Part shown: piece after piece, positions 8,154 to 31,024 of the stretch | Layout: each line of letters starts with the position of its first letter | Numbering within the stretch: the stretch's first letter is position 1 | Program-made: the position numbers and the translations under genes | The notes under the pieces: model-generated | What the model was told of the DNA's origin: nothing | Databases searched by the model: none | Seen by the model: only the letters and a program-made list of their open reading frames with translations | Origin: an uncultured Actinomycetota bacterium | Lineage (GTDB): Bacteria; Actinomycetota; Actinomycetes; CAVWCF01 | Assembly (NCBI GenBank): GCA_963697565.1 | Contig: CAVOOM010000008.1 | Coordinates: 218,329 to 282,328, forward strand | Reading direction: 5' to 3' | Length of the DNA stretch: 64,000 nt

Positions 8154-8223
8154 GGGTGAGGGCGGCACCCCTGATGGGGTGCCGCCCTCGTCGTCCCTGC
8201 GGGCCGAAACAGCCGGGGCTGGT

Positions 8224-11424: not shown

Positions 11425-11541
11425 GTGGGGGCTCCTGGGGCCAAGATGGGCCCGTGCGCTTCACGGGCTTGTGCGACGGGGGGTACGCCCCCACCGTAAC
11501 GATGGCGCGCCCCTTGGCTGTTCCGCGAGCGGCCCGCAGCC

Positions 11542-12654
11542 ATGGCTGAGCCGGCCAAGCGCGTCCGCCGCGCGCCGAGGGGCGGCGACGGCCGCCCCGT
11601 GGTGGCCGTGGTCGGCGCCGCGAGCGGTCCGGGCGCGCTGCTTGCGCGCCGCCTCGCGGCTGGCCAGGACTACCGCTCCGTGGTCGCGATCGACGCCGTC
11701 CGGCCGAAGGGGGCGAAGGGGGCGCAGGATGAGGCCGACCGGCTGACCTGGCGGACGGCCCGGATCGACCACCCGGACGTCGTCCAGACACTCAGCGGGG
11801 TCGATGTGGTGGTGCACCTGCCCGGCTGGGCGCCGCCCTTCGCTCCCCACGTGGACGGCCGGTCCGCCGGGGCTGCCGCGCGGGCGGTGCTGACCGCGGC
11901 GGCCGCGCAGGGGGTGGGCCGGGCGGTGGTGGTGACGAGCGCGGTTGTCTTCGGCGCGCGGGCCGACAATCCCCTGCCGCTCGCAGACGACAGCCCGCTG
12001 CGGGCGACCCGCGAGGCCCCTGACGTCGCCGACCTGCTGGATGTCGAGGATGTGGCGGCGCAGGCCGCCATCACGCTCCCCGGGATGCGCGTGCATGTCC
12101 TGCGTCCGGCGCTGCTGGCGGGCCCGGGGCTCGACGACCCGCTGCTGCGCTACCTCGCCGCGCCGCGGCTGCTCGCCGTCCGCGACGGATGCACGGCCTG
12201 GCAGTGGTGCCACCTCGACGACCTGCTCTCCGCGGTCGAGCTCGCGGCCGCCGGCGGTCTGGACGCCCCTGCCGCGGCGGTCGCCTGCGACGGCTGGCTG
12301 GACCGCCCCGCGCTTGAGGCGGCGATCGGGCGGCGCTTCCTGGAGGTGCCCGCGGCAGCCGCCTTCGGCGCGGCCGAGCGGCTCGAGCGGCTCGGCCTGA
12401 CAGCGGCGCCGGCCAGCCAGCTGCAGTACGCGCTCTACCCCTGGGCGAGCGCGTGCGACCGACTGCGTGCCGAAGGCTGGCGGCCGGTGCACACCAACGC
12501 CGACGTCTTGGCCGAGGTGCTCGCCGCCCACCGCGCGGGCGGGCTCGACGGGCGCTCGGCCGCGCTCGGCGCGGCGGGGGCCGCCGGCGCCACGGCCGCC
12601 GTGCTCGGCGCCGCGGTCGCCGTTCGCCGCGCGCGCCGCCGCCGGCTGGGCTGA
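11542..12654 (+). CDS. NAD(P)-binding epimerase/dehydratase-like (Rossmann-fold) protein with Ala-rich hydrophobic C-terminus
   Basis: VVAVVGAASGPGALLARRL glycine-rich motif and VVVTSAVVFG; 370 aa. Confidence 0.6.
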   Translation: MAEPAKRVRRAPRGGDGRPVVAVVGAASGPGALLARRLAAGQDYRSVVAIDAVRPKGAKGAQDEADRLTWRTARIDHPDVVQTLSGVDVVVHLPGWAPPFAPHVDGRSAGAAARAVLTAAAAQGVGRAVVVTSAVVFGARADNPLPLADDSPLRATREAPDVADLLDVEDVAAQAAITLPGMRVHVLRPALLAGPGLDDPLLRYLAAPRLLAVRDGCTAWQWCHLDDLLSAVELAAAGGLDAPAAAVACDGWLDRPALEAAIGRRFLEVPAAAAFGAAERLERLGLTAAPASQLQYALYPWASACDRLRAEGWRPVHTNADVLAEVLAAHRAGGLDGRSAALGAAGAAGATAAVLGAAVAVRRARRRRLG

Positions 12655-12673
12655 CCGGCCTAGGCTGATCGCT

Positions 12674-12889
12674 GTGGACGCACTGGTCTGGCTGCTGATC
12701 CCGGTGGCGGCCTTTGTGCTCGCGCTGCTCTGGCTCAAGATCGCCCACCGCACGCGCCCGCCCGCGGGCACCGACGAGACTGTGGACGCGCACGACCGCT
12801 TCCGGCAGGCGATGGAGAGAGAGACCGGCATCGAGCCGTCGTCGCCCAGCGCCCCAGAAGACCCGGCCGACCCGGACCCGGAGCGCTGA
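12674..12889 (+). CDS. Putative small membrane protein (one TM helix, acidic C-terminus)
   Basis: GTG start; LVWLLIPVAAFVLALLWL hydrophobic helix; low confidence because the frame is otherwise junk upstream. Confidence 0.3.
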   Translation: MDALVWLLIPVAAFVLALLWLKIAHRTRPPAGTDETVDAHDRFRQAMERETGIEPSSPSAPEDPADPDPER

Positions 12890-12897
12890 GCACTCTC

Positions 12898-13953
12898 GTG
12901 TCGCGTCGGGTCGCGGTCCAGGTGACCGCTGGAATCGTGCTGGTGGCGCTGGTCGCTGTCGGAGCCTGGCTGCCGATGCCGTACGTGTCGCTGTCGCCGG
13001 GTCCGGTGTTCGACACCCTCGGTGAGCAGAACGGCGAGCCGCTCATCCTGATCGAGGGCACCACGACGTACCCCACGGACGGTCGGCTGGACCTCACGAC
13101 GGTGTCCGAGAGCGGTGGCCCGCGCAGCCGGCTGGGGCTGCTGGAGGCGGTCAAGGACTGGGTGGACCCCGACGCGGTGGTCGTGCCCGAGCGGACGCTG
13201 TACACGGGCCAGGAGACCGCCGAGGAGGTCGAGCAGCGCAACGCCGAGGACATGGAGCTGTCTCAGGAGAACGCCGTCACCGCCGCGATGAACCAGCTCG
13301 GGATCGCCACGACCACCGAGGTCGTGGTGCGCTCGATCGCGCAAGAGGCCCCGGCGCTCGGCAAGCTCCAGGCGGGCGACGTGATCCTCGCCGTAGATGG
13401 CACCCCGGTGACGTCCGCGGTGCAGTCCCGTGACCTGATCCGCGCGCGGGCCCCCGGGCAGGACGTCTCGATCAAGGTCCGGCGCGAGACCGCCGATGGC
13501 TCCGAAGAGCTTGACGAGGTCGTGACAACCGAGCCCTCGCCAGCCGATCCGGCCATCGCCTACATCGGGATCGTCCCGGGCGAGGTGCAGGTGCCGCCGT
13601 TCGAGGTGGCCCTCAGCCTGGACCGCGTCGGCGGCCCCAGCGCCGGGCTGATGTTCGCCCTGGGCATCGTGGACAAGCTCACCGCCGAGCAAGAGAACGG
13701 CGGCAAGCACGTCGCCGGCACGGGCACCATCGACGCCGACGGCACGGTCGGCCCGATCGGCGGCATCCAGCAGAAGCTGCGGGGAGCGCGGGACGCCGGC
13801 GCGACGGTGTTCCTGGTCCCCACGGAGAACTGCGAGGACGCCGCGGGGGCGGGCGTCGACGGACTGCGGCTTGTGCGTGTGACCACGCTGTCCGACGCGC
13901 TGACGGGGATGGCCGCAGTGGTCTCCGGCGGCGAGGCGCCCACCTGCGGCTGA
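12898..13953 (+). CDS. PDZ-domain / Lon-protease C-terminal-domain protein (Rv3194c-like)
   Basis: N-terminal TM helix, PDZ segment (GDVILAVDGTPV), and S16-like region with GPSAGLMFALGI. Confidence 0.8.
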   Translation: MSRRVAVQVTAGIVLVALVAVGAWLPMPYVSLSPGPVFDTLGEQNGEPLILIEGTTTYPTDGRLDLTTVSESGGPRSRLGLLEAVKDWVDPDAVVVPERTLYTGQETAEEVEQRNAEDMELSQENAVTAAMNQLGIATTTEVVVRSIAQEAPALGKLQAGDVILAVDGTPVTSAVQSRDLIRARAPGQDVSIKVRRETADGSEELDEVVTTEPSPADPAIAYIGIVPGEVQVPPFEVALSLDRVGGPSAGLMFALGIVDKLTAEQENGGKHVAGTGTIDADGTVGPIGGIQQKLRGARDAGATVFLVPTENCEDAAGAGVDGLRLVRVTTLSDALTGMAAVVSGGEAPTCG

Positions 13954-14006
13954 GCCGTGACCTCCCGGGTGCGGCGTTGAGCGGCGGTCCGGGTTAGGTT
14001 GAAGCG

Positions 14007-16901
14007 GTGAGTTTCGCGAACCCCCCCGAAGGTGGACCCGCCGGACCCCGCCCCGTGGCGACCAAGCCAGGACGCGGACGAGCTCTGCTGCCGACCCTGG
14101 TGGTGCTCGGCGCGCTCGCCATCGCCTTCCTGCTCTTCGCCGGGTTCTACACCGAGTGGCGCTGGTTCCAGTCCATCGACTTCGAGGGCGTCTACACGAC
14201 GACCCTGCTGGTGAGGGGCGGGCTGTTCGCGGGCTTCGGGCTGCTGATGGCGGCCGCAGTCGCGGCGAACATGGTGGTCGCGTACCGGATGCGACCGCCG
14301 TTCCGCGCGGCGTCGGCCGAGCAGGCGAGCCTGGAGCGCTACCGGATGGCCCTCGAGCCGTCCAAGCGCGCCGCCGTCGTCGTCTCCGCCTCGCTGCTCG
14401 GGCTCTTCGCGGGCGGCTCCGCCGCCGCCGAGTGGCGCACCTTCCTGCTGTGGCGCAACGCCAGGGAGTTCGGCGAGACCGACGCGCAGTTCGGGCGCGA
14501 TCTCGGCTTCTTCATCTTCGAGCTGCCGTGGCTTCGGTTCTTGGTGTCCTTCGGCTTCGCGGTCGTGATCCTGTCGCTCATCGCCGCGGTGGTCACCCAC
14601 TACCTCTACGGCGGGATCCGGCTGCAGACGCCGGGGCACCGCACCACGCCCTCCGCCACGGCGCACATCAGCGTGCTGCTCGGCGTCTTCATGCTGCTGA
14701 AGGCAGCCGGCTACTGGCTCGACCGCTACGAGCTCGCGGTCCAGGACGGCCGGCTGCTCACCGGGCTGCAGTACACCGACGCCCAGGCCCTGCTTCCGGC
14801 CAAGAACATCCTGGTCGTGATCGCGCTCGTGTGCGCCGCGCTCTTCTTCATCAACGTGTTCCGCCGCACCTGGTCGCTGCCCATCATCGGCGCGGGGCTG
14901 CTCCTGCTCTCATCGTTCGCCATCGGCATCGTCTACCCCGCGATCGTCCAGCAGTTCCAGGTCCGCCCGGCCGAGCCGGCCCGCGAATCCCCGTACATCC
15001 AGCGCAACATCGAGGCCACCCGCTCTGCGTACGGCCTCGACGACGTGCAGGTCACCGACTACAACGCCAAGCCGGCGCCGGCCGAGTCCGATCTGCAGGC
15101 CGCACTGAGCACGACCGAGAACATCCGGCTGCTCGACCCCGCCTTGATCAGCCCGACCTACCGGCAGCTGCAGCAGATCCGCGGCTTCTACGGCTTCCCG
15201 GACTCCCTCGACATCGACCGGTACGAGATCGACGGCCGGGTCCGCGACTCGGTGGTCGCGGTCCGCGAGCTCGACGAGGTGCCCGAGGGCCAGCAGAACT
15301 GGGCCAACCTGCGCCTGGTCTACACCCACGGGTTCGGCTTCGTGGGCGCGTATGGCAACACCGCCCGGGCCGACGGAAGCCCGGATTTCTTCGAGGCGGA
15401 CATCCCCCCGGAGGGGCCGCTGGGGATCGAGCAGCCGCGGATCTACTTCGGCGAGAAGTCGCCGTTCTACTCGATCGTCGGCTCGCAGCAACTCGAGCTC
15501 GACTTCCCCGACGACTCCAGCCCGACCGGCCAGCGCGACTACAGCTACACCGGCAAGGGCGGCGTGCAGATCAGCAACCTGTTCGACCGGCTGGTCTTCG
15601 CGACGAAGTTCCAAGAGGGCAACATCCTGCTGTCCGACCTGATCGACTCGGACTCGCGGATCATGTGGGACCGGCAGCCGCGCGAGCGGGTCCAGAAGGC
15701 CGCGCCGTGGCTCACGGTGGACGGCGACCCCTACCCGACGGTCGTCGACGGCCGGGTGGTCTGGATCGTGGACGCCTACACGACCAGCAACCAGTACCCG
15801 TACTCCCAGCGCACGACGCTCGGCGAGGTCACCACCGACGCGCTCACCGTGACGACCCAGAGCGTGCTGGCGCAGCGGCCCGACCCGGTCAACTACATCC
15901 GCAACTCGGTCAAGGCCACCGTCGACGCCTACGACGGCACGGTGACGCTCTACGAGTGGGACCGCAACGACCCGATGCTCAAGGCCTGGCGCGGGGCCTT
16001 CCCCGACGCGGTCCAGCCGTACGAGGAGATCTCGCCTGAGCTGATGCAGCACCTGCGCTACCCCGAGGACCTGTTCAAGGTGCAGCGCGAGATCCTCTCC
16101 CAGTACCACGTGCAGGACCCGGCGGCGTTCTACGGCGGCCAGGACTTCTGGAAGGTCCCCGAGGACCCGACCAAGCGGGCGGCCCGCGCGGCGCAGCCGC
16201 CGTACTACCTCACCCTTGCCATGCCCGGCCAGAGCCAGGCGTCCTTCTCGCTGACGACGACGTTCGCGCCCGCCAAGCGCGAGACGTTGGCGGCGTTCAT
16301 GGCGGTCAACGCCCAGCCCGGAGAGGACTTCGGTACGATCCGGGTGCTGCAGTTGCCGCGCTCGACGACGATTCCGGGGCCGGGGCAGGTGCAGAACAAC
16401 TTCGAGTCCGACCCCGATGTGTCCAGCCAGCTGTCGTTGTTGAGACGTGGCGGGTCGGACGTCGAGCTCGGCAACCTGCTCACGCTGCCCGTCGCCGGGG
16501 GCCTGCTGTACGTCGAGCCGGTCTACGTGCGCGCGGCGCAGGGCGAGTCGTTCCCGCTGCTGCGCAAGGTGCTGGCGTCGTACGGCAATGAGATCGCCTT
16601 CGAGAACACCATCGAGGAGGCGCTCAGCGCGCTGTTCCGCGGCGACGGGTCGACGACCCCGCCGCCGACGGACCCGGGCACGCCGACCGAGCCGCCAGCC
16701 GGTGGCGATGCGCTCACCCAGGCGCTCGCCGACGCACAGCAGGCGCTCACCGATTCGGAGGCCGCGCTCAAGGCGGGGGACTTCGCCGCCTACGGCGAGG
16801 CGCAGCAGCGGTTGGCCGACGCGATCTCGCGTGCGGCGGCCGCCGCCGGCGGCGAGGTGTCGCCCTCGCCTTCGCCGACCCCGTCGGCTCCGAGCGCCTG
16901 A
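14007..16901 (+). CDS. UPF0182-family large integral membrane protein (Rv3193c-like)
   Basis: 964-aa ORF; multiple N-terminal TM helices and a long extracytoplasmic domain; conserved synteny. Confidence 0.85.
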   Translation: MSFANPPEGGPAGPRPVATKPGRGRALLPTLVVLGALAIAFLLFAGFYTEWRWFQSIDFEGVYTTTLLVRGGLFAGFGLLMAAAVAANMVVAYRMRPPFRAASAEQASLERYRMALEPSKRAAVVVSASLLGLFAGGSAAAEWRTFLLWRNAREFGETDAQFGRDLGFFIFELPWLRFLVSFGFAVVILSLIAAVVTHYLYGGIRLQTPGHRTTPSATAHISVLLGVFMLLKAAGYWLDRYELAVQDGRLLTGLQYTDAQALLPAKNILVVIALVCAALFFINVFRRTWSLPIIGAGLLLLSSFAIGIVYPAIVQQFQVRPAEPARESPYIQRNIEATRSAYGLDDVQVTDYNAKPAPAESDLQAALSTTENIRLLDPALISPTYRQLQQIRGFYGFPDSLDIDRYEIDGRVRDSVVAVRELDEVPEGQQNWANLRLVYTHGFGFVGAYGNTARADGSPDFFEADIPPEGPLGIEQPRIYFGEKSPFYSIVGSQQLELDFPDDSSPTGQRDYSYTGKGGVQISNLFDRLVFATKFQEGNILLSDLIDSDSRIMWDRQPRERVQKAAPWLTVDGDPYPTVVDGRVVWIVDAYTTSNQYPYSQRTTLGEVTTDALTVTTQSVLAQRPDPVNYIRNSVKATVDAYDGTVTLYEWDRNDPMLKAWRGAFPDAVQPYEEISPELMQHLRYPEDLFKVQREILSQYHVQDPAAFYGGQDFWKVPEDPTKRAARAAQPPYYLTLAMPGQSQASFSLTTTFAPAKRETLAAFMAVNAQPGEDFGTIRVLQLPRSTTIPGPGQVQNNFESDPDVSSQLSLLRRGGSDVELGNLLTLPVAGGLLYVEPVYVRAAQGESFPLLRKVLASYGNEIAFENTIEEALSALFRGDGSTTPPPTDPGTPTEPPAGGDALTQALADAQQALTDSEAALKAGDFAAYGEAQQRLADAISRAAAAAGGEVSPSPSPTPSAPSA

Positions 16902-16936
16902 CCCGGCCAGGGGAGTGATCCACTAGCCTCCGGCCC

Positions 16937-18620
16937 ATGGCTTTCTCGTTGGTGCCCGCGTCCCTGCGCGGCTACGACAAGACCTGGCTGGCCCGCGACG
17001 TCATCGCGGGGCTGACCCTGTCGGCGGTCGCGATCCCCGAGGTGATGGGCTACTCGTCCATCGCCCAGATGCCGATCGTCACGGGCCTGTACACCGTGAT
17101 CTTCCCGACCATGGTGTTCGCGCTGTTCTGCTCGTCGCGGCTGCTGGTCGTGGGGGCCGACTCGGCCACCGCCGCGGTGATGGCGGCGGGGTTGACCGGC
17201 CTGGGGGTCGCCGGGCTCACCCCGGAGTCGCCCGAGTGGGTCGCGTACGCGAGCCTGACCGCCCTGGTCACAGCGGCTCTGCTCGTGATCGCCCGGGTGC
17301 TCAAGCTGGGCTTCATCGGCGACTTCCTGAGCGCCTCGGTGCTGATCGGCTTCCTCACCGGCGTGGGCGTACAGGTGCTCACCGGGCAGCTGCCCGAGAT
17401 GCTGGGCATCCCCAAGGGCAAGGGCAACTGGCTGCAGCAGCAGTGGGAGCTGCTCACCTCGCTGAGCAGCATCCAGTGGGCGACGTTCGGCTTCTCCGTC
17501 GCGACCCTGGTGATCATCGTCGGCTTGAAGAAGCTCGCCCCCGTGGTGCCCGGCGCCCTGGTCGCGGTGGCCCTGCTCACCGGCGCTGTCCGCCGTGCTC
17601 GACTCGTCCGCCAGCGGCGTGGCCGTGGTGGGCTCGGTGCCGAAGGGCTTCCCGCCGATCGGCCTGCCGCAGGGCATCGAGTGGTCCGACGCGGTCACGG
17701 TGATCCCCATCGCCGTCGGGTGCCTGGTGCTGATCCTCGCCCAGAGCGCGGCGACCTCGCGATCCTTCGCCATGAAGACGGGCAGCCGCGTCGACGTGAA
17801 CAAGGACATCGTCGGCCTGGGCGGCGCCAACCTGGCGGCCGGCCTGTCCGGCACGTTCGTGGTCAACGGCAGCCCCACCAAGACGAAGATCCTGTACGAC
17901 CTGAAGGGCCGCACCCAGGTGGCCAACCTGACCATGGCCGGCGTCGTCCTCATCTTCACCGTCTTCGCGACCGGCCTGCTCGCCACCATGCCGAAGGCCG
18001 TGCTGGCCTCGATCGTCTTCCTGATCGGCGTCGGCCTGGTCGACCTCGTGGGCATGAAGTACCTCATGCGGCACAGCCGCGTGGAGTTCCTGGTCGCGCT
18101 CGCGACCGCCGTCACCGTCTGCGTGGTCGGGGTCACCCAGGGCATCGTGCTGGCGATCGTGCTGTCGCTTCTCGACCTGATCCGCCGCCAGTACAAGCCG
18201 GCCGACTACGTCTTGACGCAGGACGGCGACGGCGAGCCCGCCTACCAGCGGGCGACCCCCGGGGCGCAGAGCCTGCCGGGGCTGGTGGTGTACCGCTTCG
18301 ACGCCGAGCTCTTCTACGCCAACGCCAACCGGTTCGTGGACGACGTGGAGGCGGTGATCCTCGCCGCCCCCGATCCGGTCCGATGGCTGGCCATCGACTG
18401 CGCGTCCATGGCCGACATCGACTACTCCGCGAGCATGTCGCTGCGGGGGCTGATCGACTTCGCCCACGCACGCAACGTGGAGGTGCATCTGGTGCGCCCG
18501 GACACCCGCTTCACGGACAGCCTCAAGGCCTTCGACCTCGTCGACGAGATCCGCGGCGACCGCGTGCACGCGACCCTGGAAGAGGTCTTCAACGCCTTCC
18601 GCGCTGCTCCCGCGACCTAA
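16937..18620 (+). pseudogene. SulP-family sulfate/anion permease with C-terminal STAS domain; apparent frameshift near 17585-17595
   Basis: N-terminal frame (16937) degenerates after ...ALLTGAV; the rest continues in the 17595 frame (LSAVLDSSASGVAVVGSVPKG ... STAS); could be a sequencing error. Confidence 0.7.
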
Positions 18621-18711: not shown

Positions 18712-18788
18712 CGCGGGGTGGAGCAGCTCGGTAGCTCGCTGGGCTCATAACCCAGAGGTCGCAGGTTCAAATCCTGCCCCCGCTACCA
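18712..18788 (+). tRNA. Initiator tRNA-fMet (anticodon CAT)
   Basis: Near-identical to bacterial initiator tRNA (CGCGGGGTGGAGCAGC...GGGCTCATAACCC...CCCCGCTACCA); 1:72 mismatch (C1:U72); three consecutive G:C pairs in the anticodon stem; encoded CCA. Confidence 0.9.
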
Positions 18789-19030
18789 ACGTTTATGCAG
18801 GTCAGGGCCATGATCATTGATCATGGCCCTGTTCCTTGTGGGCAGAATGTCGGCAAGCCTGCCGACACCGGACACCGTCGAGGTCGGGTTGACAGCGGTT
18901 GGCCCGACGTTGGCGGACGTGCGGAGACGCTCGTGGACCTCGGATCTCCCCTCGCGGTGCGTTGCGTTGTTTGACCTCTGGGTCGGAAACCCGGAGGTCG
19001 GGAAGTCAATCCGGATCAGCCGGGACGTGT
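18789..19030. repeat. R-arm repeat, copy 1: hairpin CAGGGCCATGATCA-TT-GATCATGGCCCTG, GCAGAATGTCGGCA(agcc)TGCCGACA motif and ~180 bp more; ~80% identical to 20688-20930
   Basis: Direct alignment of the two downstream-of-tRNA segments. Confidence 0.65.
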
Positions 19031-19036
19031 CAGGTC

Positions 19037-20180
19037 TCAGTCGGTGATGAGCGCTTCGGCCCACCAGGCCGGTGGTTCGGGGACGGGCGCCATGGGCGGT
19101 CCTGTCACCTTCGTCGGACCCAGGACGGGCCAGGCGGCCGGGTCGATGGTCGACTGTCGAGTGACGATGGCGTCGGCGCTGATGTCGAAGGTGGTGAGGT
19201 CCTGGGCGATGGTGACCGGCCCCTCGTACTGGCGTGCGCATGTCGGCGTAGGCCGGGCCAACGACCTGGTGGTCGACGGCGAGGTGCCACATCACCGACA
19301 TCCGTGCACCCGCGCGGGCGAACACCTTGCCCGCCATCGTGGGACTGGTGTGGGCGCCGTTGACGACCTGCTCGGCGAAGCCCACGGGAACGCCCGCCTT
19401 CTGGGCGAACACTGCGGGTGAGGGAAACGTCTCGTGGACGAGCAGGTCCGCGCCGTCGCAGGCGTCCACCAGTGGGCGGCAGGGGCGGGTGTCTCCGGAG
19501 AACACCACGCTGCGACCGTTGAAGTCCAGGCGGTAGCCGACCGAGCCGTTGAGGATGTGGATGACCGGGAACGAGGAGACCCGCACGCCGTTGCGGTCAT
19601 AGACCATCGCTGTCCGGTCCCAGGGCACCTCGGTGACCTCGGTGTGAGCCCCGGACTGGCCGGGGTGCCCGCGCAGCGACTGCCATGTCCCAGGCGTGCG
19701 CCGCCTCGAGGTGCTCGGTGTAGGAGCGGGTTCCCAGCTCTGGTGTCTCCCCGGCGGGTCCCCAGACCTCGACCGGGTCGCGTCGACCGGCCTTGGCCAG
19801 GCTCCACACAGGGTCGGCATGTCGCCGACGTGGTCGGCGTGCAGGTGGGTCAGGAACACCTTCGTCGTGGCCGTCACCGGCAGAGCCAGCCCGTTGTAGT
19901 TGGCCAGGGCACCGGACCCGAGGTCGAAGAAGAACAGGTCCCGCTCGGGGTTGCCGACCTCGATCAGCAGCGACGCCGACGCCTGGCTCGACTTCACGAA
20001 CGGGTCACCCGACCCCAGGACCGTGACCCGGATCTCGCCATCTCGCACCGGCTCCGCCGACGGCGTCAGGACCGGCGTCACCGAGCCGGACGGCGTCCCC
20101 ACCACCGGGGTCGTCGTCAACGGCGCGCCGCCCTCGTACGCAAGCTCCGTCAGCTCGGTGATCTCCGTAGTCACGGCCAC
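19037..20180 (-). pseudogene. MBL-fold metallo-hydrolase (HxHxDH: LTHLHADHVGD) interrupted by at least 3 frameshifts
   Basis: Protein-like segments alternate between frames (20180-19810, 19809-19690, 19650-19262, 19261-19037); junk R/P-rich stretches lie between them. Confidence 0.65.
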
Positions 20181-20486
20181 GCTCCTCTGTGTCAGGCCTG
20201 CATCCCGATCTTTGCACCCGCGGCAGTCGTGGTTCCCACCGGCGCGGGCGAGGTCAGATCAGCCGTGGAAGTCCCTTGGCGGCCAGGTCGACGCCGAAGA
20301 CCAGGAGCAGCACCGCCGTTACCGCGTTGGTGTGGACAGCCAACCAGTGCTTGAGTTCGCCGAGGTGGCTCCTGGCCCGCACGCCGGCGGTGCTTCAGCA
20401 AGCCGTGGACACCGGTCGGGTACAGGCCCAGACCGGAGTACGAGCGCTGTTCGACGAGCGCGCTGAGGGGCCGGCGCGGTCAACAT

Positions 20487-20930
20487 CACATGTCGGCAGA
20501 ATGTCGGCATCACGTGCCCGGACACCGGTGGACTCGAGGCGACCTTTGCGGCCGCGGATGGGCCTGTGACCTGCGACGACAAGCGTTCCACCGCTGTCCT
20601 GCGCCGTCCACGACTGCTCGTTGGCGTTGGATGCTTCGGCGGCTCATAACCCAGAGGTCGCAGGTTCAAATCCTGCCCCCGCTACCAACGTTTATGCAGG
20701 TCAGGGCCATGATCATCGATCATGGCCCTGATTGCGTGTTGGCAGAATGTCGGCAGGCCTGCCGACACGGGGGACCGTCAAGGTGGCGCCGACGCCGGTT
20801 TGCTCGACGCTGGTGGACGTGCCGAGACGCTCGTGGACGACACATCCGCACAGGCGGTGCGTTACGCCGTTTGACCTCTGGGTCGAAGACCCAGGAGTCG
20901 CCGAAGGTGGTCGCTCACGGCGTTAACCGT
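20487..20930. repeat. Composite module, copy 2: L-arm (20487-20640), 47-nt 3' remnant of tRNA-fMet (20641-20687) and R-arm (20688-20930)
   Basis: Remnant identical to tRNA positions 29-76 (GGCTCATAACCCAGAGGTCGCAGGTTCAAATCCTGCCCCCGCTACCA); flanking arms homologous to 18789-19030 and 23657-23808. Confidence 0.7.
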
Positions 20931-20968
20931 CGCGGTGACCTGTCGTGACGGCCGCCGCGACGACTGCG

Positions 20969-23335
20969 CTACTGGCGGGCCAGATGTGCTCGTAGCTCGG
21001 CTTCGGGGTCGACGATCAGTTCCCCGCTGACGTCGACGACCACCTGCTCGAGGCGGCCGGTGAACTTGAACGGGCTCGGGTACGCCGGGGTCACCGGGGA
21101 CCCCGGGTTGTGGCCGCAGCTGACGCCGCCGGGGTTGAACATGAACGGCGTGGTGTAGGGGGCGTCGGCGGTGGCGACCAGTGAACCGTCGACGTACAGC
21201 TGGAGCCGTCCGGGGGCGCCCCGGCCGTGCGGCAGGTCGGCCGCGCCGGTGGGCTCGAACTCGAAGCGGAGCTCGTGGCGCCCGGCCGGGAGCGGGTCGG
21301 GCGAGGAGACGGTGAACCGCTCCCGCGCAACGTAGTTGTGGACGTAGTGCAGCCGGCCGTCCTTGACATACAGCGAGTAGCCACCTGCGGCCGTCCCCTG
21401 GCAGAACAGGACGCCCTCGGCGCCCCCCTCCGGGATGTCCACGGTCGCGCTGATGCTGTGCGGACGGTTGTGCAGGCGTGGGGCAGCGAAGTTGGGGATC
21501 GACTGGGTGCCCGGCCGGTACGTGTACTGGTTCCGCGGCAACGCGACATGCGGCTTCTCGACGGTCATCCGGGCCAGGCCGCTGCCATCGACTGGCATGA
21601 CCTGGTACTTGCCGGCCTCGACATACCAAGTCCCGATCAGCTCGATGAGCTTCTCGCGGTTCTCGGTGGCGAGATTGTGGTTCTCCGCCGGGTCCTCGTC
21701 GATGTGGTACAGCTCCCAGCCGGTGGCGTCGAGCTTCGTCAACGTCTCGGCCGAGATGGGGTTGCCGAAGCCGGTACCGGCCTCGGTGAACGACGGTCCC
21801 GGCCACGGGCAGACAGCACGCCAGCCGTCCTTGTAGATGGCCCGGTGGCCCAGCATCTCGAAGTACTGGGTGTGGTGCCGGCTGGGCGCCGCCGGGTCGT
21901 CGAGCGCGTGGGCGAAGCTGACGCCCTGGATCGGCGACTGCGTGACGCCACGGATCGCCGTCGGCGGCTCCACGCCGAGCAGGTCGAGGACCGTCGGCAC
22001 CATGTCGATGATGTGGGCGTACTGCGAGCGCACCTCGCCGCGCGCCTTGACACCGGCCGGCCAGGACACGATGAACGGGTCGCTGGAGCCGCCGCGGTAC
22101 GTCTCGCGCTTCCAGCGCCGGAACGGCGTGTTGCCGGCGAATGTCCAGCCCCACGGGTAGTGGTTGAAGTGCTCGGGGCCGCCGATCTTGTCGATGACGG
22201 CCAGGCTCTCCTCGAGCGTCTCCTGGGCGTTGTTGAAGAACTGCGCCTCGTTGGTCGTTCCTCCCGGGCCGCCTTCGGCGCTGGCACCGTTGTCGCTGAT
22301 AACCATGACGATCGTGTTGTCGAGGATGCCCTGCTCGCGCAGGAAATCGAGCAGCCGGCCAAGGTGGTGGTCGGTATGGCTGAGGAACCCCGCGAACACC
22401 TCCATCATGCGCGCGTAGAGCCTCCGCGCCTCCGGCGACAGGGACTCCCACTCCGGCACGTCCGGGTCGTGGCGGGACAGCTCGGCGTCGGCCGGCAGGA
22501 TGCCCAGCTCCTTCTGCCGGGCGAACACCTTCTCCCGGTAGGCATCCCAGCCGTCGTCGAACTGGCCGGCGTACCGGTCGGCCCACTCCTTGGGCACGTG
22601 GTGCGGGGCGTGGGTCGCCCCGAAGCACAGGTGCAGGTAGAACGGCTTGGCGGGATCGATCTGGCGCAGGTCGGTGATGAACTCGATCGACTTGTCGACG
22701 AGGTCCTCGGTCAGGTGGTAGCCCTCCTCCGGTGTCCGGGGCGGCTCGACCGGGTGGTTGTCATACACCAGCTCGGGGTACCACTGGCTGGTGTCGCCGC
22801 CAAGAAACCCGTAGAAGCGCTGGAAGCCGCGTCCCAGCGGCCACCGGTCGTACGGGCCGGCGGCGGTCTCATAGACGCTCGGCGTCAGGTGCCACTTGCC
22901 AACCATGTACGTGCCGTAGCCCTGCTCGACCAGCATCTCCGACAGCATGCCGTTCTCGAACGGCATGATGCCGTTGTAGCCCGGGTAGCCGGTGGCGAAC
23001 TCGGTGATGCATGCCATGCCGTTGCTGTGATGGTTGCGCCCCGTCACGATGCACGACCGGCTCGGCGAGCACAGCGCCGTCGTGTGCATGTTCGAAAACC
23101 GTAGCCCGCCCGCCGCAAGCGCATCGAAGTTCGGCGTCTGGATCGGGCTCCCGTAGCACCCCAGTTGGCCGAAACCCGTGTCGTCCAACACCACGAACAA
23201 CACGTTCGGCGCATCCGCGCGAGCTCGCGTTGGCGCCGGCCACGCCGGAGACGACTCCTCCGCCGTACGACCGATCACACCCGGAAACGGCCGACCCGAG
23301 TCGTACTCAACGACCGCCATCGCAAGCCTCCGCAT
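20969..23335 (-). CDS. Arylsulfatase (formylglycine-dependent sulfatase family) with C-terminal extension
   Basis: LFVVLDDTGFGQLGCYG and the sulfatase signature CSPSRS...GRNHH; 788 aa, intact. Confidence 0.85.
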   Translation of the reverse strand: MRRLAMAVVEYDSGRPFPGVIGRTAEESSPAWPAPTRARADAPNVLFVVLDDTGFGQLGCYGSPIQTPNFDALAAGGLRFSNMHTTALCSPSRSCIVTGRNHHSNGMACITEFATGYPGYNGIMPFENGMLSEMLVEQGYGTYMVGKWHLTPSVYETAAGPYDRWPLGRGFQRFYGFLGGDTSQWYPELVYDNHPVEPPRTPEEGYHLTEDLVDKSIEFITDLRQIDPAKPFYLHLCFGATHAPHHVPKEWADRYAGQFDDGWDAYREKVFARQKELGILPADAELSRHDPDVPEWESLSPEARRLYARMMEVFAGFLSHTDHHLGRLLDFLREQGILDNTIVMVISDNGASAEGGPGGTTNEAQFFNNAQETLEESLAVIDKIGGPEHFNHYPWGWTFAGNTPFRRWKRETYRGGSSDPFIVSWPAGVKARGEVRSQYAHIIDMVPTVLDLLGVEPPTAIRGVTQSPIQGVSFAHALDDPAAPSRHHTQYFEMLGHRAIYKDGWRAVCPWPGPSFTEAGTGFGNPISAETLTKLDATGWELYHIDEDPAENHNLATENREKLIELIGTWYVEAGKYQVMPVDGSGLARMTVEKPHVALPRNQYTYRPGTQSIPNFAAPRLHNRPHSISATVDIPEGGAEGVLFCQGTAAGGYSLYVKDGRLHYVHNYVARERFTVSSPDPLPAGRHELRFEFEPTGAADLPHGRGAPGRLQLYVDGSLVATADAPYTTPFMFNPGGVSCGHNPGSPVTPAYPSPFKFTGRLEQVVVDVSGELIVDPEAELRAHLARQ

Positions 23336-23656
23336 CCGCTGGTCAACAGGGCGGTCAGCCCCGACTCGAACCCGACCACGGGCCCAGTCCCACGGTCAAG
23401 GGGCCCAGGTCCGCCCCGAGTGCGAAGCCCCGATGCCAGGCTGACCGTCAAGACCGCTCTGGTAGTTCCGACCCTGATGCGGGCGGCTCACGACCCACGC
23501 CGTCGCACACCTGATTACGCCTCTCGTGATGGCAAGTCGATCGCCGGGGCCCGCGACTCCGCGTCGACGGGCTTCGTCTGCGGGACGTCCACCGGCGTCG
23601 CCGGCGGTCTGGCGAGGCCGCGTCGAGCGAAGAAGTCAGCCGGGAAGCAGGGTCGC

Positions 23657-23855
23657 CATGTCGGCCGAATGTCGGCAACACACGCCCGGACATGGCTGGA
23701 CGTCAGGCGACGGCGGCGGGCCCCGGTGGGTCTGTGACCTGCGAAGACGCTTCGTCCAGCGGTGTCCGGCACCGTCCGGGACTGCGCGCTGGCGTCGGAT
23801 GTTTCGGCGGCTCATAACCCAGAGGTCGCAGGTTCAAATCCTGCCCCCGCTACCA
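23657..23855. repeat. L-arm (copy 3) plus 47-nt 3' remnant of tRNA-fMet (23809-23855); no R-arm follows
   Basis: L-arm ~80% identical to 20487-20640, including the ATGTCGGCCGAATGTCGGCA motif; sequence after the remnant is unrelated. Confidence 0.65.
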
Positions 23856-24345
23856 GGCAAGTGCAGGTCAGAGGCTTGATCACCGATCTTGGTGGTCGAG
23901 CCTCTGATCGTTTGACCGCACCTTGACCGCAAGCCACCGAACCAGAACCGCGTGGACGGTGGTGGACGACGGTGGCGCAGATCCGCCGTCCTGCGGCAGC
24001 AAGCGTCTGGTTGCGAGACGGGCCCCGCTAACGAGGTGTAAGGGGCTGCCGAGTCCCGCGGCGCTCGACGAACCCACGCTCCCCGACTGTGGGGGTCATG
24101 AGTTTGGTGCCTTTCAAGGGATGCACCAGCTGCATCGCGCCCGCCGCGGGCGTGGATCTCAGCCTCTCGCTGTCAGACCCCGGGGGAAGGATGAAGTCGT
24201 TGAGAGTGGGGGTCCGGTGATGGTCATGCTTCCAGCGCCTGTGCCACTCCTATTGCCTATCGCTTGACAGCAATTTGAGCATCCACTCTGCTGGACTCAA
24301 CTGGACGCGGCGGCAACGCCTGGGTTGGGGCTACCGAGCCCGAGG

Positions 24346-25065
24346 TCAGGAGGTCTCCTGGATCTCCTGCCACACTTGCGCCTTGAACTCCTCGCGCCCC
24401 GAGCCGGCCTCGTACTTGTCGTACCGGTCCTTACTCTTGAGGTAGAAGTCCTGGTGGTACTCCTCGGCCTCGAAGAACGTGGTGAACGGCAGGACGGACG
24501 TGGCGATCGGCTGCTCGAACACGCCGGCTTCGGCCAGTGCGTCCTTGGACGACTGGGCCGCGGCCCGCTGCTCCTCGTCGCGGACGAATATGGCAGTGGT
24601 GTACGGCAAGCCACGATCGACGAACTGGCCGCCAGGATCGGTGGGGTCGATTGCCCGCCAGAACACGTCGAGCAGCTCGGAGTAGGTGATGACGGCGGGG
24701 TCGTAGTAGACCTGAACTGCCTCCCGGTGGCCCGTGCGCCCGGTGTAGACCTCCTGGTACGTCGGGTTCACCTCGGGGCCGCCGGCGTACCCGCTGATCG
24801 CATTGCTGACGCCGGCAGTCTCCTGGAAGACGGACTCGACGCACCAGAAGCACCCACCGGCGAAGGTCGCCACTGCGGCGCCGGGGGGCGTCGACTCCCG
24901 AACGATCACTGCCGGCTGCGGCAGCCGCTCGGGAACCGCGGCGAGTTCGGACGCTCCGGGCTCGGCGCGGCAGCCGGCGACGAGGGCCAGGATCAGGCCG
25001 GCCACCAGCGCGACGAGCGCCAGTCGCGGGTCAGCCCGATACGGCGTTCCCTGGGTCTTCTGCAC
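24346..25065 (-). CDS. msrA: Peptide methionine sulfoxide reductase MsrA, probable lipoprotein
   Basis: Signal peptide with lipobox (LVAGC); GGCFWC active-site motif; 239 aa. Confidence 0.85.
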   Translation of the reverse strand: MQKTQGTPYRADPRLALVALVAGLILALVAGCRAEPGASELAAVPERLPQPAVIVRESTPPGAAVATFAGGCFWCVESVFQETAGVSNAISGYAGGPEVNPTYQEVYTGRTGHREAVQVYYDPAVITYSELLDVFWRAIDPTDPGGQFVDRGLPYTTAIFVRDEEQRAAAQSSKDALAEAGVFEQPIATSVLPFTTFFEAEEYHQDFYLKSKDRYDKYEAGSGREEFKAQVWQEIQETS

Positions 25066-25398
25066 ACCTCAGTGTCCTCCGCCTGGCCGGGACCGGCGAC
25101 CCAAGGTCCGGTCCTCCCAACAATGGTGTAGCCCAGGCCGGCGATCGAGGACCGAGCCATGCAGGTCCAGCTGGCGCTGGCCAGCGCGGGTCAGCGCCGT
25201 GCACCATCGATACCGGACCGGCTGCTCGCCGCCGCAGCCGAGCTGACCCGTCCTGCGTTCCCCGGAGTGGGGGCCGTTCGGCCTAGCGCGACGGCCTTCC
25301 CACGGTGTGGACTGTGACTAGTCGCCCCGGCCTGGGCGAGATCGTCCGGCACGGGCCCCGAGGCGGACGATGGCTTGACGAGCGGAGCGAGGTAGGGC

Positions 25399-28902: not shown

Positions 28903-29316
28903 TCACCACCATCCCGCCGACGCCGATCCCCCTCCCTCGAGGCCGATGCTGGGCAGCGCGACGCGCTCCAGCAGGAGTCGGGCCCCGGCGTCGTCGAGGT
29001 CGGGACGCGCCAGCCGGACGTCCTCGCCGACCGTCGGGGTGAGCATCGTTGGGTGCTGCGCCACCAGCCCGACCCTGCGCCGCAGCGCGTGGACGTCGTA
29101 CGAGGCGAGCGGCTGGCCGTCGACGCGGATGGTGCCGTCAGTCGGCTCTGGAAAGCGGTCGAGCATCCGCAGGAAGGTCGACTTGCCCGATCGGCTGGCG
29201 CCGAGGACGGCGGTGGTGCAGGCCCGGTGGATTTGATCGCTCACGCCATCGAGGATGCGATGGCCGTCCCGTTCCCGGACGAAGCCATCGAGGCCGAACG
29301 CCTCGGCCAGGGCCAT
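28903..29316 (-). pseudogene. ABC transporter ATP-binding protein, N-terminal fragment only (Walker A GASRSGKST, Q-loop); signature and Walker B regions missing
   Basis: 137-aa ORF ends just before where LSGGQ should be; the downstream overlapping ORF (start 28912) may be a decayed permease. Confidence 0.45.
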
Positions 29317-29376
29317 CGGCCCATGATGTCAGTAGCGGGCCTGCCGACCCGACGATCGCGTCATAGGGTGCTGGCC

Positions 29377-31024
29377 ATGAGCGAAGACCAGACCGCCGGC
29401 AGTACGGCCCCTCCCGAGGCGAGCAAGGCCGCGGGCGGCGTGCGCGGCGCGGGCACGGTTGAAGGGGTGTTCAGCCAGGCGGTCGCTGACCGTCCGGAGG
29501 CCGTGCGGCAGCAGATCGCCAAGGCGGCGGCGCAGAAGGTGGTCCCGCACCCGACCCTTGAGGAGCGGCTGCGCAAGGGCCGGGTCGCTCGGGCGGAGAC
29601 CCCGCGGGAGGAGTTGTCGGCCTGGCAGCCGCCCGCAGACCGGGCCGATCCGGTGGCGATGCTCGAGGGCCAGGAGACCTCTCGGGTGCAGGAACTCGTG
29701 CCGGTGCGGCACGCGCGGATGGCGACCAGCGCGTTCGCGTTCTACCGGGGGGCGGCGCTGCTGATGGCCGCTGACCTCGCGGTGATGCCGCGCACCGAAG
29801 CTCGAGGTGCAGCTGTGCGGCGACGCGCACCTGTCGAACTTCGGCCTCTTCGCCGCCCCGGACCGTTCGGTGATCTTCGACGTGAACGACTTCGACGAGA
29901 CCAACCCAGGTCCGTTCGAGTGGGATGTCAAGCGGCTGGCGACGTCGTTCGTCCTGGCGGCCCGCGACAACGGGCTTCCGGCGAAGGTCGGGCTGGCCGC
30001 AGCCGAGGCCGCCGCGGCCTCCTACCGGGAGTCGATGGCGGCCTTCGCGGGCAAGGGCGAGTTGGAGATCTGGTACGACCGCATCGACGCGGCCGGGCTC
30101 GTCTCCTCCGTGCGGGCGCTGCCCAGCAGCAAGGGCAAGCTGGGGGCGAAGGAGCAGGCCAAGGTGGAGGCGACCATGCAGGGGGCCGTGGCCAAGGCCC
30201 GGCTCCGCGACGCCTGGTCGGCGATCGCGAAGATCACCGAGGTGGTGGACGGCCACCGCCGGTTCCGCGACCAGCCGCCGCTGCTGACCCGCCTCGAGCT
30301 CAGCCACGAGGCCGCGGTCCTGGTGAACGCGGTGTATCGGGAGTACCGGGCCACGCTCCAGGATGACCGGCAGGAGCTGCTGAAGCGCTACGAGATCATC
30401 GACATGGGCCACAAGGTGGTCGGGGTCGGCAGCGTGGGCCTGCTGGCGTTCGTGCTGCTGCTGCGCGGCCGCGACGAGGACGACCTCATCGTGCTGCAGG
30501 TCAAGCAGGCGCAGGCCTCAGTGCTGGAGGCCTACACCCGCAAGTCGGCGTTCACCAAGCACGGCCACCGGGTGGTCACCGGACAGCGGTTGATGCAGGC
30601 GGCGAGCGACTCGTTCCTCGGCTGGATCGACGGACCGGGCGGGCGCAGCTTCTACGTGCGGCAGCTCAGGGATATGAAGTGGTCGCCGGATCCCGCGTCG
30701 CTCAACGAGGAGCGGCTGCCCCGCTACGCGCTGCTGTGCGGTCTCACGCTCGCCCGGGCGCACGCCCGGTCCGGCGACGCGGTTGCGATCTCGGCGTACC
30801 TCGGGTCGGGCAAGTCGTTCGACCGGGCCATCCGGGAGTTCGCCGAGACCTACGCCAATCAGTCTGAGCAGGACTACGCGGCGTTCATGGCGGCCATCAC
30901 CGACGGCCGGCTCGGCGCGCACGAGGATGCCGCCGGCGCCGAGGGCATCGCGGCCGCCCAGCAGGTCGCGACGCCCACCCCGAAGCCCAAGCGCGCCGCC
31001 AAGAAGGCCCCCGCCGCGACCTGA
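29377..31024 (+). pseudogene. DUF2252-domain protein; apparent frameshift near 29790
   Basis: N-terminal 138 aa (..VPVRHARMATSAFAFYRGAALLMAADLAVMPRT) in one frame; the remainder (VQLCGDAHLSNFG...) in the 29807 frame; could be a sequencing error. Confidence 0.65.

Follow-up and report, generated by a model that had tools for sequence, protein, structure and literature searches.

Stacked integrase-less cassettes, probably mobilized in trans, at the 3′ part of an initiator tRNA-Met gene in an uncultured actinobacterium

The window, by which we mean the whole 64,000-nt stretch analyzed here, comes from an uncultured Actinomycetota bacterium. A single tRNA-Met(CAT) gene was called by ARAGORN (Rfam tRNA score, 63.6 bits). 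As read from the sequence, it has the hallmarks of an initiator (a C1/U72 mismatch and an anticodon stem closed by three G:C pairs), and it is 100% identical in seven related loci. The 47-nt segment at its 3′ end (GGCTCATAACCC...CTACCA) occurs in three exact copies (Table 1), where the number expected by chance is 0 (100 shuffles). A preliminary description of the locus, which reported an intact tRNA-fMet followed by two exact copies of its 47-nt 3′ end, was thus borne out by ARAGORN and by exact-match searching. The copies delimit two intervals, which we refer to as cassettes 1 and 2, each with the layout R-arm, cargo, L-arm. In the related loci, as in the window, the array is bounded by direct repeats that reproduce the 3′ part of the tRNA, and the tRNA is intact at one end. 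When the L-arm/core/R-arm junction was scanned with Rfam, the tRNA was the sole match.

Table 1. Features of the tRNA-Met locus in window coordinates; att designations are predictions
Feature	Position	Strand	Remarks
SulP sulfate permease gene	16937..18620	+	Chromosomal flank, outside the element
Intact initiator-type tRNA-Met(CAT)	18712..18788	+	attL; 5′ part chromosomal, 18742-18788 is the 47-nt core
R-arm of cassette 1 (P′-arm)	18789..19030	+	
Cargo 1: MBL-fold hydrolase (378-aa family)	19040..20186	-	Pfam Lactamase_B_2
L-arm of cassette 1 (P-arm)	20487..20640	+	95% identical to the L001 L-arm
tRNA 3′ remnant 2	20641..20687	+	attR of cassette 1, attL of cassette 2; 47/47 against the tRNA
R-arm of cassette 2	20688..20930	+	Hairpin 20702-20731; palindromic site 20745-20767; invariant block 20869-20885
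Cargo 2: intact Cys-type arylsulfatase	20969..23335	-	Pfam Sulfatase 1.3e-67; CSPSR motif
L-arm of cassette 2	23546..23808	+	Universal part 23657-23808; tandem sites 23657-23677
tRNA 3′ remnant 3	23809..23855	+	attR of cassette 2; 47/47 against the tRNA
Native-type flank (B′)	23856..23915	+	Hairpin CAGAGGC...GCCTCTG; without arm motifs
msrA	24346..25068	-	Chromosomal flank distal to the array; Pfam PMSR 3.1e-58

The two cargo genes are unrelated to each other. Pfam, tblastn, and motif evidence agree with their original description as a frameshifted MBL hydrolase gene and an intact 788-aa sulfatase gene. The former has at least three frameshifts relative to the intact orthologue in related locus L001 (the tblastn alignment is broken into segments in frames -3, -2, and -1), so cassette 1 may be decaying in this window. 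Homologues of the sulfatase (89-90% identical) are 783 aa long, and the true start is therefore probably at 23320. The sulfatase cassette is 96.1% identical at the nucleotide level to a cassette in L016.

The sulfate permease gene does lie immediately 5′ of the tRNA, as first described, but it is not intact. A frameshift is located near 17570-17619, intact SulP proteins are split between frames 2 and 3 in tblastn alignments, and the Pfam Sulfate_transp match is limited to the N-terminal part. The gene is also degraded in the closest relative, L043. Indel-type frameshifts occur in several genes of the window. On the other side of the array, the strong hairpin of the native-type flank resembles the one found directly 3′ of the tRNA in L043, which is cassette-free. 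The cargo had been suggested to form a sulfate-ester scavenging theme, which we grade as weak because the SulP gene is frameshifted and the cargo of related cassettes is diverse (chiefly genes for arsenic or copper resistance, regulatory proteins, and hydrolases). There is also an observation in favor of that theme: native, noncassette copies of this sulfatase have a radical-SAM maturase and SulP as neighbors, and SulP also adjoins one of the native MBL copies.

R-arms are ~240 bp and L-arms 150-290 bp in length, and the L-arm, 47-nt tRNA core, and R-arm together make a junction of ~0.45-0.6 kb. Alignment upheld the earlier claim that both units share R-arms and L-arms of ~80% identity: core plus proximal R-arm (18742-18831 vs. 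20641-20730) is 99% identical, the distal R-arm (18832-19000 vs. 20732-20900) 79%, and L-arm plus core (20489-20687 vs. 23657-23855) 82%. The R-arm of cassette 1 includes a terminator-like hairpin (18803-18831), a palindrome, TGTCGGCA-N4-TGCCGACA, within 18845-18867, and, at 18969-18985, an invariant block (GTTTGACCTCTGGGTCG) that repeats the core segment ACCCAGAGGTC in inverted orientation. Its L-arm has tandem sites (CATGTCGGCAGAATGTCGGCA, 20489-20509) 131 nt ahead of the core. Counted from the core start, the TGTCGGCA sites are invariant at -150/-139 (direct) and +107/+120 (direct and inverted), with the inverted copy of ACCCAGAGGTC at about +232. The motif blocks are unchanged in 9-13 arm copies, in which mean arm column identity is only 68-69%; the L-arm tandem sites are fixed at 131 nt from the core in 10/10 copies, and the left limit of identity falls at the same base in every copy. 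We regard the invariant motifs as putative recombinase binding sites. An upstream extension of ~110 nt in the L-arm of cassette 2 is also present in cassettes with other cargo (L031, L037, L042). The native tRNA flanks and the R-arm have a short string, GCAGGTCAG, in common, and the R-arm may thus have evolved from a native tRNA flank.

Conserved untranslated regions of the cargo genes were considered as the source of the arms and rejected, because close homologues of the cargo genes occupy ordinary loci without arms; moreover, the same arms flank unrelated cargo. An IS or MITE, which would have short target-site duplications and terminal inverted repeats, was likewise rejected: no terminal inverted repeats relate the L-arm to the R-arm, and the ends are nonidentical arms that have the same orientation and flank a 47-nt direct repeat.

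Using tRNA-independent patterns (an R-arm pattern to scan genomes and an L-arm pattern to scan metagenomes), we recovered the L-arm/core/R-arm layout in five Actinomycetota MAGs and six metagenome contigs. No fewer than 11 independent assemblies, produced by different projects, have this layout. Two more MAG loci, reached by protein look-ups, add R-arms. This is a previously undescribed cassette family in several uncultured soil actinobacteria. Arm copies adjoin the tRNA-iMet gene or its remnant, except for two incomplete R-arm copies, and in most of the related genomes an R-arm lies directly 3′ of the tRNA. In L049 and L050, the R-arm follows the tRNA, and no L-arm or remnant occurs within 4-10 kb. 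Cassettes are ~1.9-5 kb long and have one to seven cargo genes, whose orientation is not uniform and which can include their own regulators and upstream regions. Cassette order varies among genomes. The cargo encodes MBL, sulfatase, cupin, LuxR, ArsR/ArsC/ArsP, OsmC, and TetR proteins, as well as flavodoxin plus dienelactone hydrolase, a two-component system plus multicopper oxidase, and a P-type ATPase.

In the closest relative, L043, the flanks are ~93% identical to the window and the tRNA is without cassettes. The tRNA is directly followed by a native hairpin, and there are neither arms nor a remnant in the 1.17 kb from the tRNA to the contig end. The preliminary description had proposed looking in relatives for an empty site with the tRNA directly adjoining the msrA side. 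The cassette-free tRNA was found, but not the adjoining msrA side; beyond the hairpin is a YoeB/YefM module, with no match to that part of the window. In the array-bearing loci, the right ends (attR) adjoin differing, lineage-specific native flanks. An additional line of evidence is metagenome contig L037 (5,181 bp), which has an exact 127-nt terminal overlap. The resulting 5,054-bp unit comprises one L-arm/core/R-arm junction plus arsenic-resistance genes, has no recombinase ORF, and is 88% identical to a cassette integrated after the tRNA in L031. It is predicted to be either an excised circle or part of a chromosomal tandem of identical cassettes.

The initial statement that the window has no integrase, excisionase, or transposase agrees with a Pfam scan of ~50 window ORFs, none of which is an integrase, recombinase, or transposase. 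Phage_integrase, Recombinase, and Resolvase domains had no match in these ORFs or in any cassette, and unrelated DDE (rve) IS insertions in L001 and L013 were the only such genes found. No integrase, excisionase, or transfer-gene fragment occurs in ~15 cassettes from ~12 loci. Related genomes were read over 8-22 kb each. In five genomes, no integrase flanks the array within ~10 kb to the left or right, and the genes upstream of the tRNA are SulP or UPF0182. Pattern-limited searches of genomes, metagenomes, and viral, phage, and plasmid sequences also yielded no integrase-bearing relative. It should be noted that MAGs often miss plasmids and AICEs.

Serial integration at the 3′ end of the tRNA, as originally proposed, is supported by the multispecies family, the cassette-free site in L043, the native flanks at attR, and L037. 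Because the repeats are att-type footprints and the units, which belong to a family found across species, are without an integrase, mobilization in trans is the best reading, and it was among those put forward at the outset. The description of the units as degenerate does not hold as stated, given that they are compact and have no integrase remnants in ~15 copies. Overall, we consider it probable that the two window cassettes are integrase-less, CIME-like, and mobilized in trans, with the 3′ part of the initiator tRNA-Met gene as their specific target. As the recombinase was not found, the mechanism is one that we infer. In a circularized cassette, the L-arm, 47-nt core, and R-arm would make an attP-like module of ~0.5 kb. 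A recombinase encoded elsewhere, presumably a tyrosine integrase with an arm-binding domain, would recombine the cassette core with the tRNA or a resident remnant. The reaction would restore the intact tRNA and a terminator at attL (the R-arm hairpin taking the place of the tRNA’s own) and leave a 45-47-nt remnant at attR; repeated integration events would give rise to arrays. The cassettes are presumably still active in this genome.

The cassettes could instead be decayed CIMEs, or fossils of an integrase-carrying AICE, prophage, or island, and thus immobile scars that are vertically inherited. Both CIMEs and the tandem accretion of elements at tRNA genes have been well described (PMC5704250), and tycheposon islands gather degenerate elements and scattered partial tRNAs (bioRxiv 10.1101/2020.12.28.424599). 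The frameshifted MBL cargo fits this explanation, as do the truncated arms or remnants and IS insertions in some arrays (L013, L041/L042, L045 R2, L050) and the fact that an integrase was found for none of the copies. However, the cassettes surveyed all have the same compact arm-cargo-arm layout around different cargo, and none has a fragment of integrase, excisionase, or transfer genes. The arm motifs are invariant although the surrounding arm sequence has diverged by ~20-30%, most remnants still match the tRNA at 45-47 of 47 positions, L037, which has no integrase, assembles into a closed unit, and the cassettes are absent from L043. Thus, we consider decay unlikely.

Quite improbable, in our judgment, is that no dedicated recombinase is involved, and that circular or linear DNA entered by a RecA-dependent, Campbell-type crossover over ~290 bp (the 47-nt tRNA end plus the R-arm), with arrays rearranged by homologous recombination between arms. 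The failure to find an integrase is compatible with this, the R-arm that follows the tRNA in most related genomes would be a long homology target, and the two proximal window repeats are 99% identical over their first 90 nt. Furthermore, R-arms seem shuffled relative to cargo (the window R1 is 80% identical to that of L001, and the remainder of that cassette is 90-95% identical). Yet this explanation gives the L-arm no role, despite tandem sites at a fixed distance and a left edge of identity at one and the same base, and integration has also occurred beside native flanks that provide only 45-47 nt of homology. Tandem direct repeats could also have arisen if the tRNA-distal region had been duplicated in situ and its cargo then replaced, or through misassembly of a repeat, and the indel-type frameshifts in window genes suggest an error-prone assembly. 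The tandem amplification with cargo replacement that had been offered as an option is unsupported because the window cassettes, whose arms are ~80% alike mutually, more closely resemble counterparts in other genomes (90-96% identity). The recurrence of the layout in independent assemblies and the unrelated cargo genes also argue against duplication or artifact, which, given these cross-genome sequence comparisons, appears effectively refuted.

Mobilization in trans could be part of something broader, a possibility that we raise only tentatively: an integron-like, tRNA-anchored gene-capture system of uncultured soil Actinomycetota, in which an unlinked, dedicated recombinase would shuffle cassettes and capture single chromosomal genes. 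Integrase-less cassettes would enter and leave the initiator-tRNA gene via the 0.5-kb attP-type module, and new ones would form from single chromosomal genes cut almost exactly at ORF boundaries. A hint of such capture comes from the MBL gene of the L001 cassette: it is 96.7% identical to that of an ordinary locus (L051), and the match covers the ORF exactly and nothing beyond it.

Among known systems, AICEs (pSAM2, SLP1) and temperate actinophages have the same host phylum and the same type of target as the cassettes. Typically, their identity segment starts at the anticodon stem-loop and extends to the 3′ end, and the tRNA is regenerated; they are 10-50 kb in size, and besides int/xis they have genes for replication and for transfer or virions. 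The cassettes, in contrast, are small and without int/xis, and BLAST matches of their arms to phage and plasmid collections were confined to the tRNA part. Pseudo-SCC elements of staphylococcal SCC composite islands are recombinase-less cargo units with the same repeats as full elements, and are mobilized in trans. Like the cassettes, they form stacks at the 3′ end of a single conserved gene, but the host is staphylococcal, the target is rlmH rather than a tRNA, the recombinase is a serine Ccr, and there are no long conserved arms.

Integron cassettes are also small, often with one gene, carry diverse adaptive cargo without a recombinase of their own, and are stacked at one chromosomal site, and their free circle holds a single recombination site, as is predicted for the cassettes here. 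However, the integron attC is an imperfect palindrome of 60-140 nt that recombines as a folded single strand, whereas here the junction is a ~0.5-kb double-stranded, attP-type module around a tRNA core, and the cassettes differ further in that they can include regulators and upstream regions, in mixed orientation. With no intI/attI platform at the head of the array and no short attC at the junction, we rejected an integron. Tycheposons of Prochlorococcus integrate at tRNA genes, leave partial-tRNA repeats behind, carry nutrient- or stress-related cargo, and are pushed outward by successive integrations, all as in the cassettes. They encode a tyrosine or serine recombinase of their own, in many cases along with replication genes (bioRxiv 10.1101/2020.12.28.424599). 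Both modules are absent from every cassette, which led us to reject this class, and the cassettes differ also in their long conserved arms.

CIMEs are defined by retained attL and attR, missing integration and transfer genes, and an integrase that comes from another element (PMC5704250). Those of the Streptococcus ICESt1/ICESt3 type resemble the cassettes in having attL/attR derived from the 3′ end of the target gene, tandem arrays, no integration or transfer genes, and (presumably, in the case of the cassettes) an integrase supplied by another element. The window cassettes indeed have attL and attR without integration or transfer genes. By definition, CIMEs have decayed from a recognizable ICE or IME, and they have a known integrase-bearing relative; for the cassettes, no parent, integrase remnant, conjugation gene, or other ICE or IME gene remnant was found in any copy. 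What sets the cassettes apart from CIMEs is that they form a coherent, compact arm-cargo-arm family across several uncultured Actinomycetota.

The array stands behind the only tRNA gene in the window, a tRNA-Met(CAT) (Rfam tRNA, 63.6 bits), which we assign to the initiator type (tRNA-iMet) because its sequence has a C1/U72 mismatch and three G:C pairs closing the anticodon stem. Its last 47 nt (the core) occur in three exact copies, a pattern seen in none of 100 shuffles, the two downstream copies being remnants 2 and 3. The first two copies are each followed immediately, on the 3' side, by a common R-arm (99% identity for the core and the first 43 nt of the arm, then 79% for a further 169 nt), and the last two are each preceded immediately, on the 5' side, by a common L-arm (82% identity including the core). 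The cargo of the first interval is an MBL-fold hydrolase gene, which can be aligned with an intact orthologue only by changing frame three or more times. That of the second is an intact sulfatase with a CSPSR motif; an exact look-up of this protein gave no match, and its true start is probably five codons downstream of the called one. The preliminary description was accurate on the repeats, arms, and cargo, as it was on the lack of an integrase or transposase: a Pfam scan of ~50 ORFs across the window found housekeeping genes (UvrD, UPF0182, msrA, PPK2, KOR, V-type ATPase) and no integrase, recombinase, or transposase. GC content was ruled out as a mark of foreign origin, given that the cassettes show no foreign signature when compared in this way. 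Far from the array, V/A-type ATPase subunit genes lie in a high-GC actinobacterial context, and a similar operon adjoins an MBL homologue at L055, a locus without arms.

Coordinates of features in the window and at related loci (L-numbers, contigs or loci of other genomes and metagenomes)
Sequence	Feature	Position	Detail
Window	Region matched by the cassette-free relative L043	6743-17412	~93% identical
Window	SulP gene	16937-18620	two reading frames, split near 17570-17619
Window	tRNA-Met(CAT)	18712-18788	
Window	Core copy 1 (within the tRNA)	18742 (start)	
Window	Core copy 2 (remnant 2)	20641 (start)	
Window	Core copy 3 (remnant 3)	23809 (start)	
Window	R-arm-like blocks after the native-type hairpin	23910-23945	CGTTTGACC...TTGACCGCAAGCCACCGAAC
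Window	DUF2252 gene	29053-31024	profile positions 1-40 in ORF 29053-30366; 39-392 in another frame, 29786-31024
Window	V/A-type ATPase subunit genes	59159-63626	V_ATPase_I, ATP-synt_ab
L001	MBL gene in cassette	2803-3939	
L001	rve-type (IS481-like) transposase gene	4453-5763	directly after tRNA remnant
L001	Isolated hairpin	7914-7946	GGTCAGGGCCATGATCATCGATCATGGCCCTGA
L031	tRNA remnant	1851-1895	ends ...GCTAC, flank continues GG
L039	tRNA remnant	1052-1096	ends ...GCTAC, flank continues GG
L045	Second R-arm	16711-17066	
L047	Sulfatase homologue with SulP	6816-14990	
L051	MBL gene at ordinary locus	4754-5890	
L057	Native sulfatase locus	10001-15662	SulP and radical-SAM/SPASM maturase

Several searches indicate that the arms define a family linked to tRNA-iMet. 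Within the window, the 11-mer GAATGTCGGCA occurs four times, always in the arms. When one genome per GTDB species was scanned with a 19-base R-arm pattern that is free of tRNA sequence (GAATGTCGGCANNNNTGCCGACA), 36 loci were found; at five of these, all in Actinomycetota MAGs, the motif comes ~57 nt behind tRNA-iMet or behind a repeat of the tRNA's 3' end, and the remaining 31 are without the tRNA-iMet core and look like chance 19-base matches. A tRNA-independent L-arm pattern matched six metagenome contigs, and in five of these the L-arm runs directly into a tRNA-iMet 3' remnant (the sixth has only a partial L-arm, at the contig end). Protein-anchored look-ups added two loci, L049 and L050, with the R-arm directly behind the tRNA. 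Besides the window's own genome, arrays lie in the assemblies CAWFSE01, CAVQYR01, CAVSCR01, JANPBY01, and JBBRVU01 and in bins of ERZ25039462 and ERZ25039539. Every exact core copy tabulated is preceded by the tRNA 5' half or an L-arm ending TTCGGC, and followed by an R-arm or lineage-specific sequence. In plasmid and phage collections, BLAST with the arms as queries hit the tRNA segment alone. The match in Nocardia phage P3.1 was set aside as a tRNA-like sequence (86% identity over 76 of the tRNA's 77 nt), with no integrase annotated within 3 kb. In scans of viral contigs nothing matched the arm-plus-tRNA patterns, the L-arm/core junction, or the distal R-arm block, and the single match to the hairpin pattern (L048) is an unrelated phage terminator.

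Alignment of 13 R-arms and 10 L-arms gave a mean column identity of 68-69%, with invariant blocks. The R-arm has a strong hairpin directly after the CCA (-32 to -34 kcal/mol, z about -5 to -7), a palindrome TGTCGGCA-N4-TGCCGACA at +107/+120 from the core start, and, at about +232, a block GTTTGACCTCTGGGTCG that repeats the core segment ACCCAGAGGTC in inverted orientation. The L-arm has a tandem CATGTCGGCAGAATGTCGGCA at -150/-139 relative to the core start, and in five cassettes with differing cargo it extends ~110-130 nt further upstream. The hexamer GTGGAC recurs in the arms and was dropped as a motif, being common genome-wide (1.2 per kb), and a known noncoding RNA was rejected after Rfam at a permissive threshold found the tRNA alone. 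Parts of the arms also occur separately: L001 has a hairpin 100% identical to that of the window R-arm at the 3' end of a small ORF, without a tRNA remnant or other arm sequence, and the second R-arm in the L045 array, which follows the 3' end of a PIN-like ORF, is without hairpin and remnant.

Cargo across the family is diverse, and comprises MBL hydrolase, sulfatase, cupin, LuxR and TetR regulators, ArsR/ArsC/ArsP sets, OsmC, flavodoxin with dienelactone hydrolase, a two-component system with multicopper oxidase, and a P-type ATPase. The arrays additionally contain toxin-antitoxin modules and IS insertions of the DDE type. No integrase or excisionase was found in any family cargo examined, and the array ends and hypothetical ORFs of L016, L045, L049, and L050 turned out to contain nothing but cargo genes, among them metal-resistance genes. 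At ordinary loci, which have neither arms nor tRNA remnants, there are homologues of the sulfatase (89-90% amino acid identity) and of the MBL protein (up to 97%). Because these contexts (L046, L047, L051-L055, L057) are armless, the possibility that the arms are UTRs of the sulfatase and MBL genes was rejected. The MBL genes of the L001 cassette and of the ordinary locus L051, where the gene adjoins a tmRNA gene, are 96.7% identical over exactly the 1,137-nt ORF; the match runs from start codon -2 to stop codon +1, and the sequences immediately outside are unrelated. This is a hint that the gene was transferred between the two settings with boundaries exact to the ORF. The L045 array includes HepT/MNT among other toxin-antitoxin modules, and L043 has YoeB/YefM right after its tRNA. 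The L001 transposase gene is followed on its far side by a repeat of 14 nt (TGCCCCCGCTACCA) and then a second R-arm, and in L013 the R-arm is broken, 80 nt past the tRNA, by a different IS of the rve/Mu type; cassette arrays seem to attract IS insertions.

A cassette-free tRNA is found in the metagenome contig L043, where the next element is a hairpin like that seen after remnant 3 of the window, and R-arm, L-arm, and remnant are all absent from the 1.17 kb that remain of the contig. Flanks at attR vary by lineage, being a CAGAGGC...GCCTCTG hairpin in the window, a AAGTCCCGGGACATC hairpin in L031 and L001, and a GC-rich intrinsic terminator in L039, as predicted by one element family integrating into different hosts. 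Cassette content and order also vary: in L031 the arsenic-resistance cassette comes next to the tRNA; in the window and L001 that place belongs to the MBL cassette, which is absent from the much closer L043; and the sulfatase cassette is last in the window and followed by another in L016. Because the L031 and L039 remnants stop short of a complete CCA, the original tRNA genes of these hosts may not have encoded it, the cassette-borne core having supplied it. In the window, the blocks after the native-type hairpin weakly resemble the R-arm blocks GTTTGACC and ATGTCGGCAAGCCTGCCGAC, and L043 has TGTTGGCAG in common with the R-arm at the equivalent place. Either the "native" flank may go back to an R-arm that decayed long ago, or a native flank may have given rise to the R-arm.

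Only one of 12 contigs checked, L037 (5,181 bp, from JGI metagenome 3300032397), has an identical 127 nt at both ends. Exact terminal overlap of k-mer length usually signals, in de Bruijn assemblers, a tandem repeat or a circular molecule. The unit of 5,054 bp has one L-arm, core, and R-arm module together with arsenic-resistance, OsmC, and thioredoxin-like genes, has no recombinase ORF, and shares 88% identity with the integrated cassette of L031. Its structure is that predicted for a cassette after excision, or for a tandem of such units.

Some of the gene disruptions call for caution. The SulP gene beside the tRNA is split here, and in L043 it has deletions, with only a 130-aa fragment called; it is probably either a decaying gene in this lineage or a product of assembly indels. 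Given that SulP, DUF2252, and the MBL gene are all frameshifted, indel errors typical of long-read assemblies are suggested, and for this reason the MBL gene is likely, but not certainly, a pseudogene. The sulfate-scavenging theme proposed earlier is weak. Native sulfatase loci do have SulP as a neighbor (L057 with a maturase as well, L047 with a second sulfatase in its place), and in one case a native MBL copy adjoins SulP, so that a local functional link between cargo and SulP is possible but unproven; against it, SulP is disrupted in both genomes and the family cargo is not sulfur-centered. No maturase gene accompanies the sulfatase in the window cassette, so that the enzyme would have to be matured by the product of a gene outside it.

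The simplest account is that a recombinase supplied in trans would recombine attP with attB in the 3' half of the tRNA gene, with crossover predicted in the anticodon stem-loop, the TGTCGGCA repeats as putative arm-type sites, and the R-arm hairpin restoring a terminator for the regenerated tRNA. A site-specific mechanism is favored over a homologous one because the left limit of identity falls at the same base in all core copies and native flanks offer homology of 45-47 nt only. The enzyme itself we infer, since no recombinase was found: viral contigs and phage and plasmid records gave tRNA-like matches only, and 8-22 kb of each related genome was read.

Among the other explanations, tandem amplification, as entertained in the preliminary description, does not agree with the similarities observed. 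The arms of the window cassettes are only ~80% alike, whereas the MBL cassette is 90.2% identical to its L001 counterpart and the sulfatase cassette 96.1% to that in L016 (we make no claim of horizontal transfer from the latter figure, as the host of L016 may be closely related to the window organism). These values therefore point to separate family members rather than a local duplication, and in-situ duplication or artefact is effectively excluded. That the cassettes are classical decay products or fossils appears unlikely. RecA-mediated insertion via the core and a resident R-arm is more doubtful still, because the L-arm is conserved and would have no role in such a scheme. Trans-acting, site-specific recombination is the reading that we prefer.

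Arrays of this kind are missed by island finders that require an integrase gene, and the invariant arm motifs now enable a direct search for them. The host group comprises poorly studied soil actinobacteria, and genes such as theirs, for arsenic and copper resistance, a sulfatase, hydrolases, and regulators, are the usual cargo in local adaptation.

Functionally, the closest known system is that of cis-mobilizable elements (CIMEs), which keep att sites, have no integration genes, and are mobilized by the integrase of another element (PMC5704250); unlike these, the cassettes have no recognizable ICE parent. They share tRNA-linked arrays with the tycheposons of Prochlorococcus (bioRxiv 10.1101/2020.12.28.424599) but have no element-borne recombinase or replication module. 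Integron cassettes have a similar lifestyle, and differ in that intI, attI, and attC are all lacking here. Because of these differences, the cassettes fall outside the definitions of all three classes. Cargo units that have no integrase and are mobilized in trans are known in two forms, integron cassettes and decay products of sporadic occurrence (CIMEs, pseudo-SCC). If our reading is true, a coherent family that pairs a long attP-type module with a classical tRNA attB would constitute a third route to cassette-style gene exchange.
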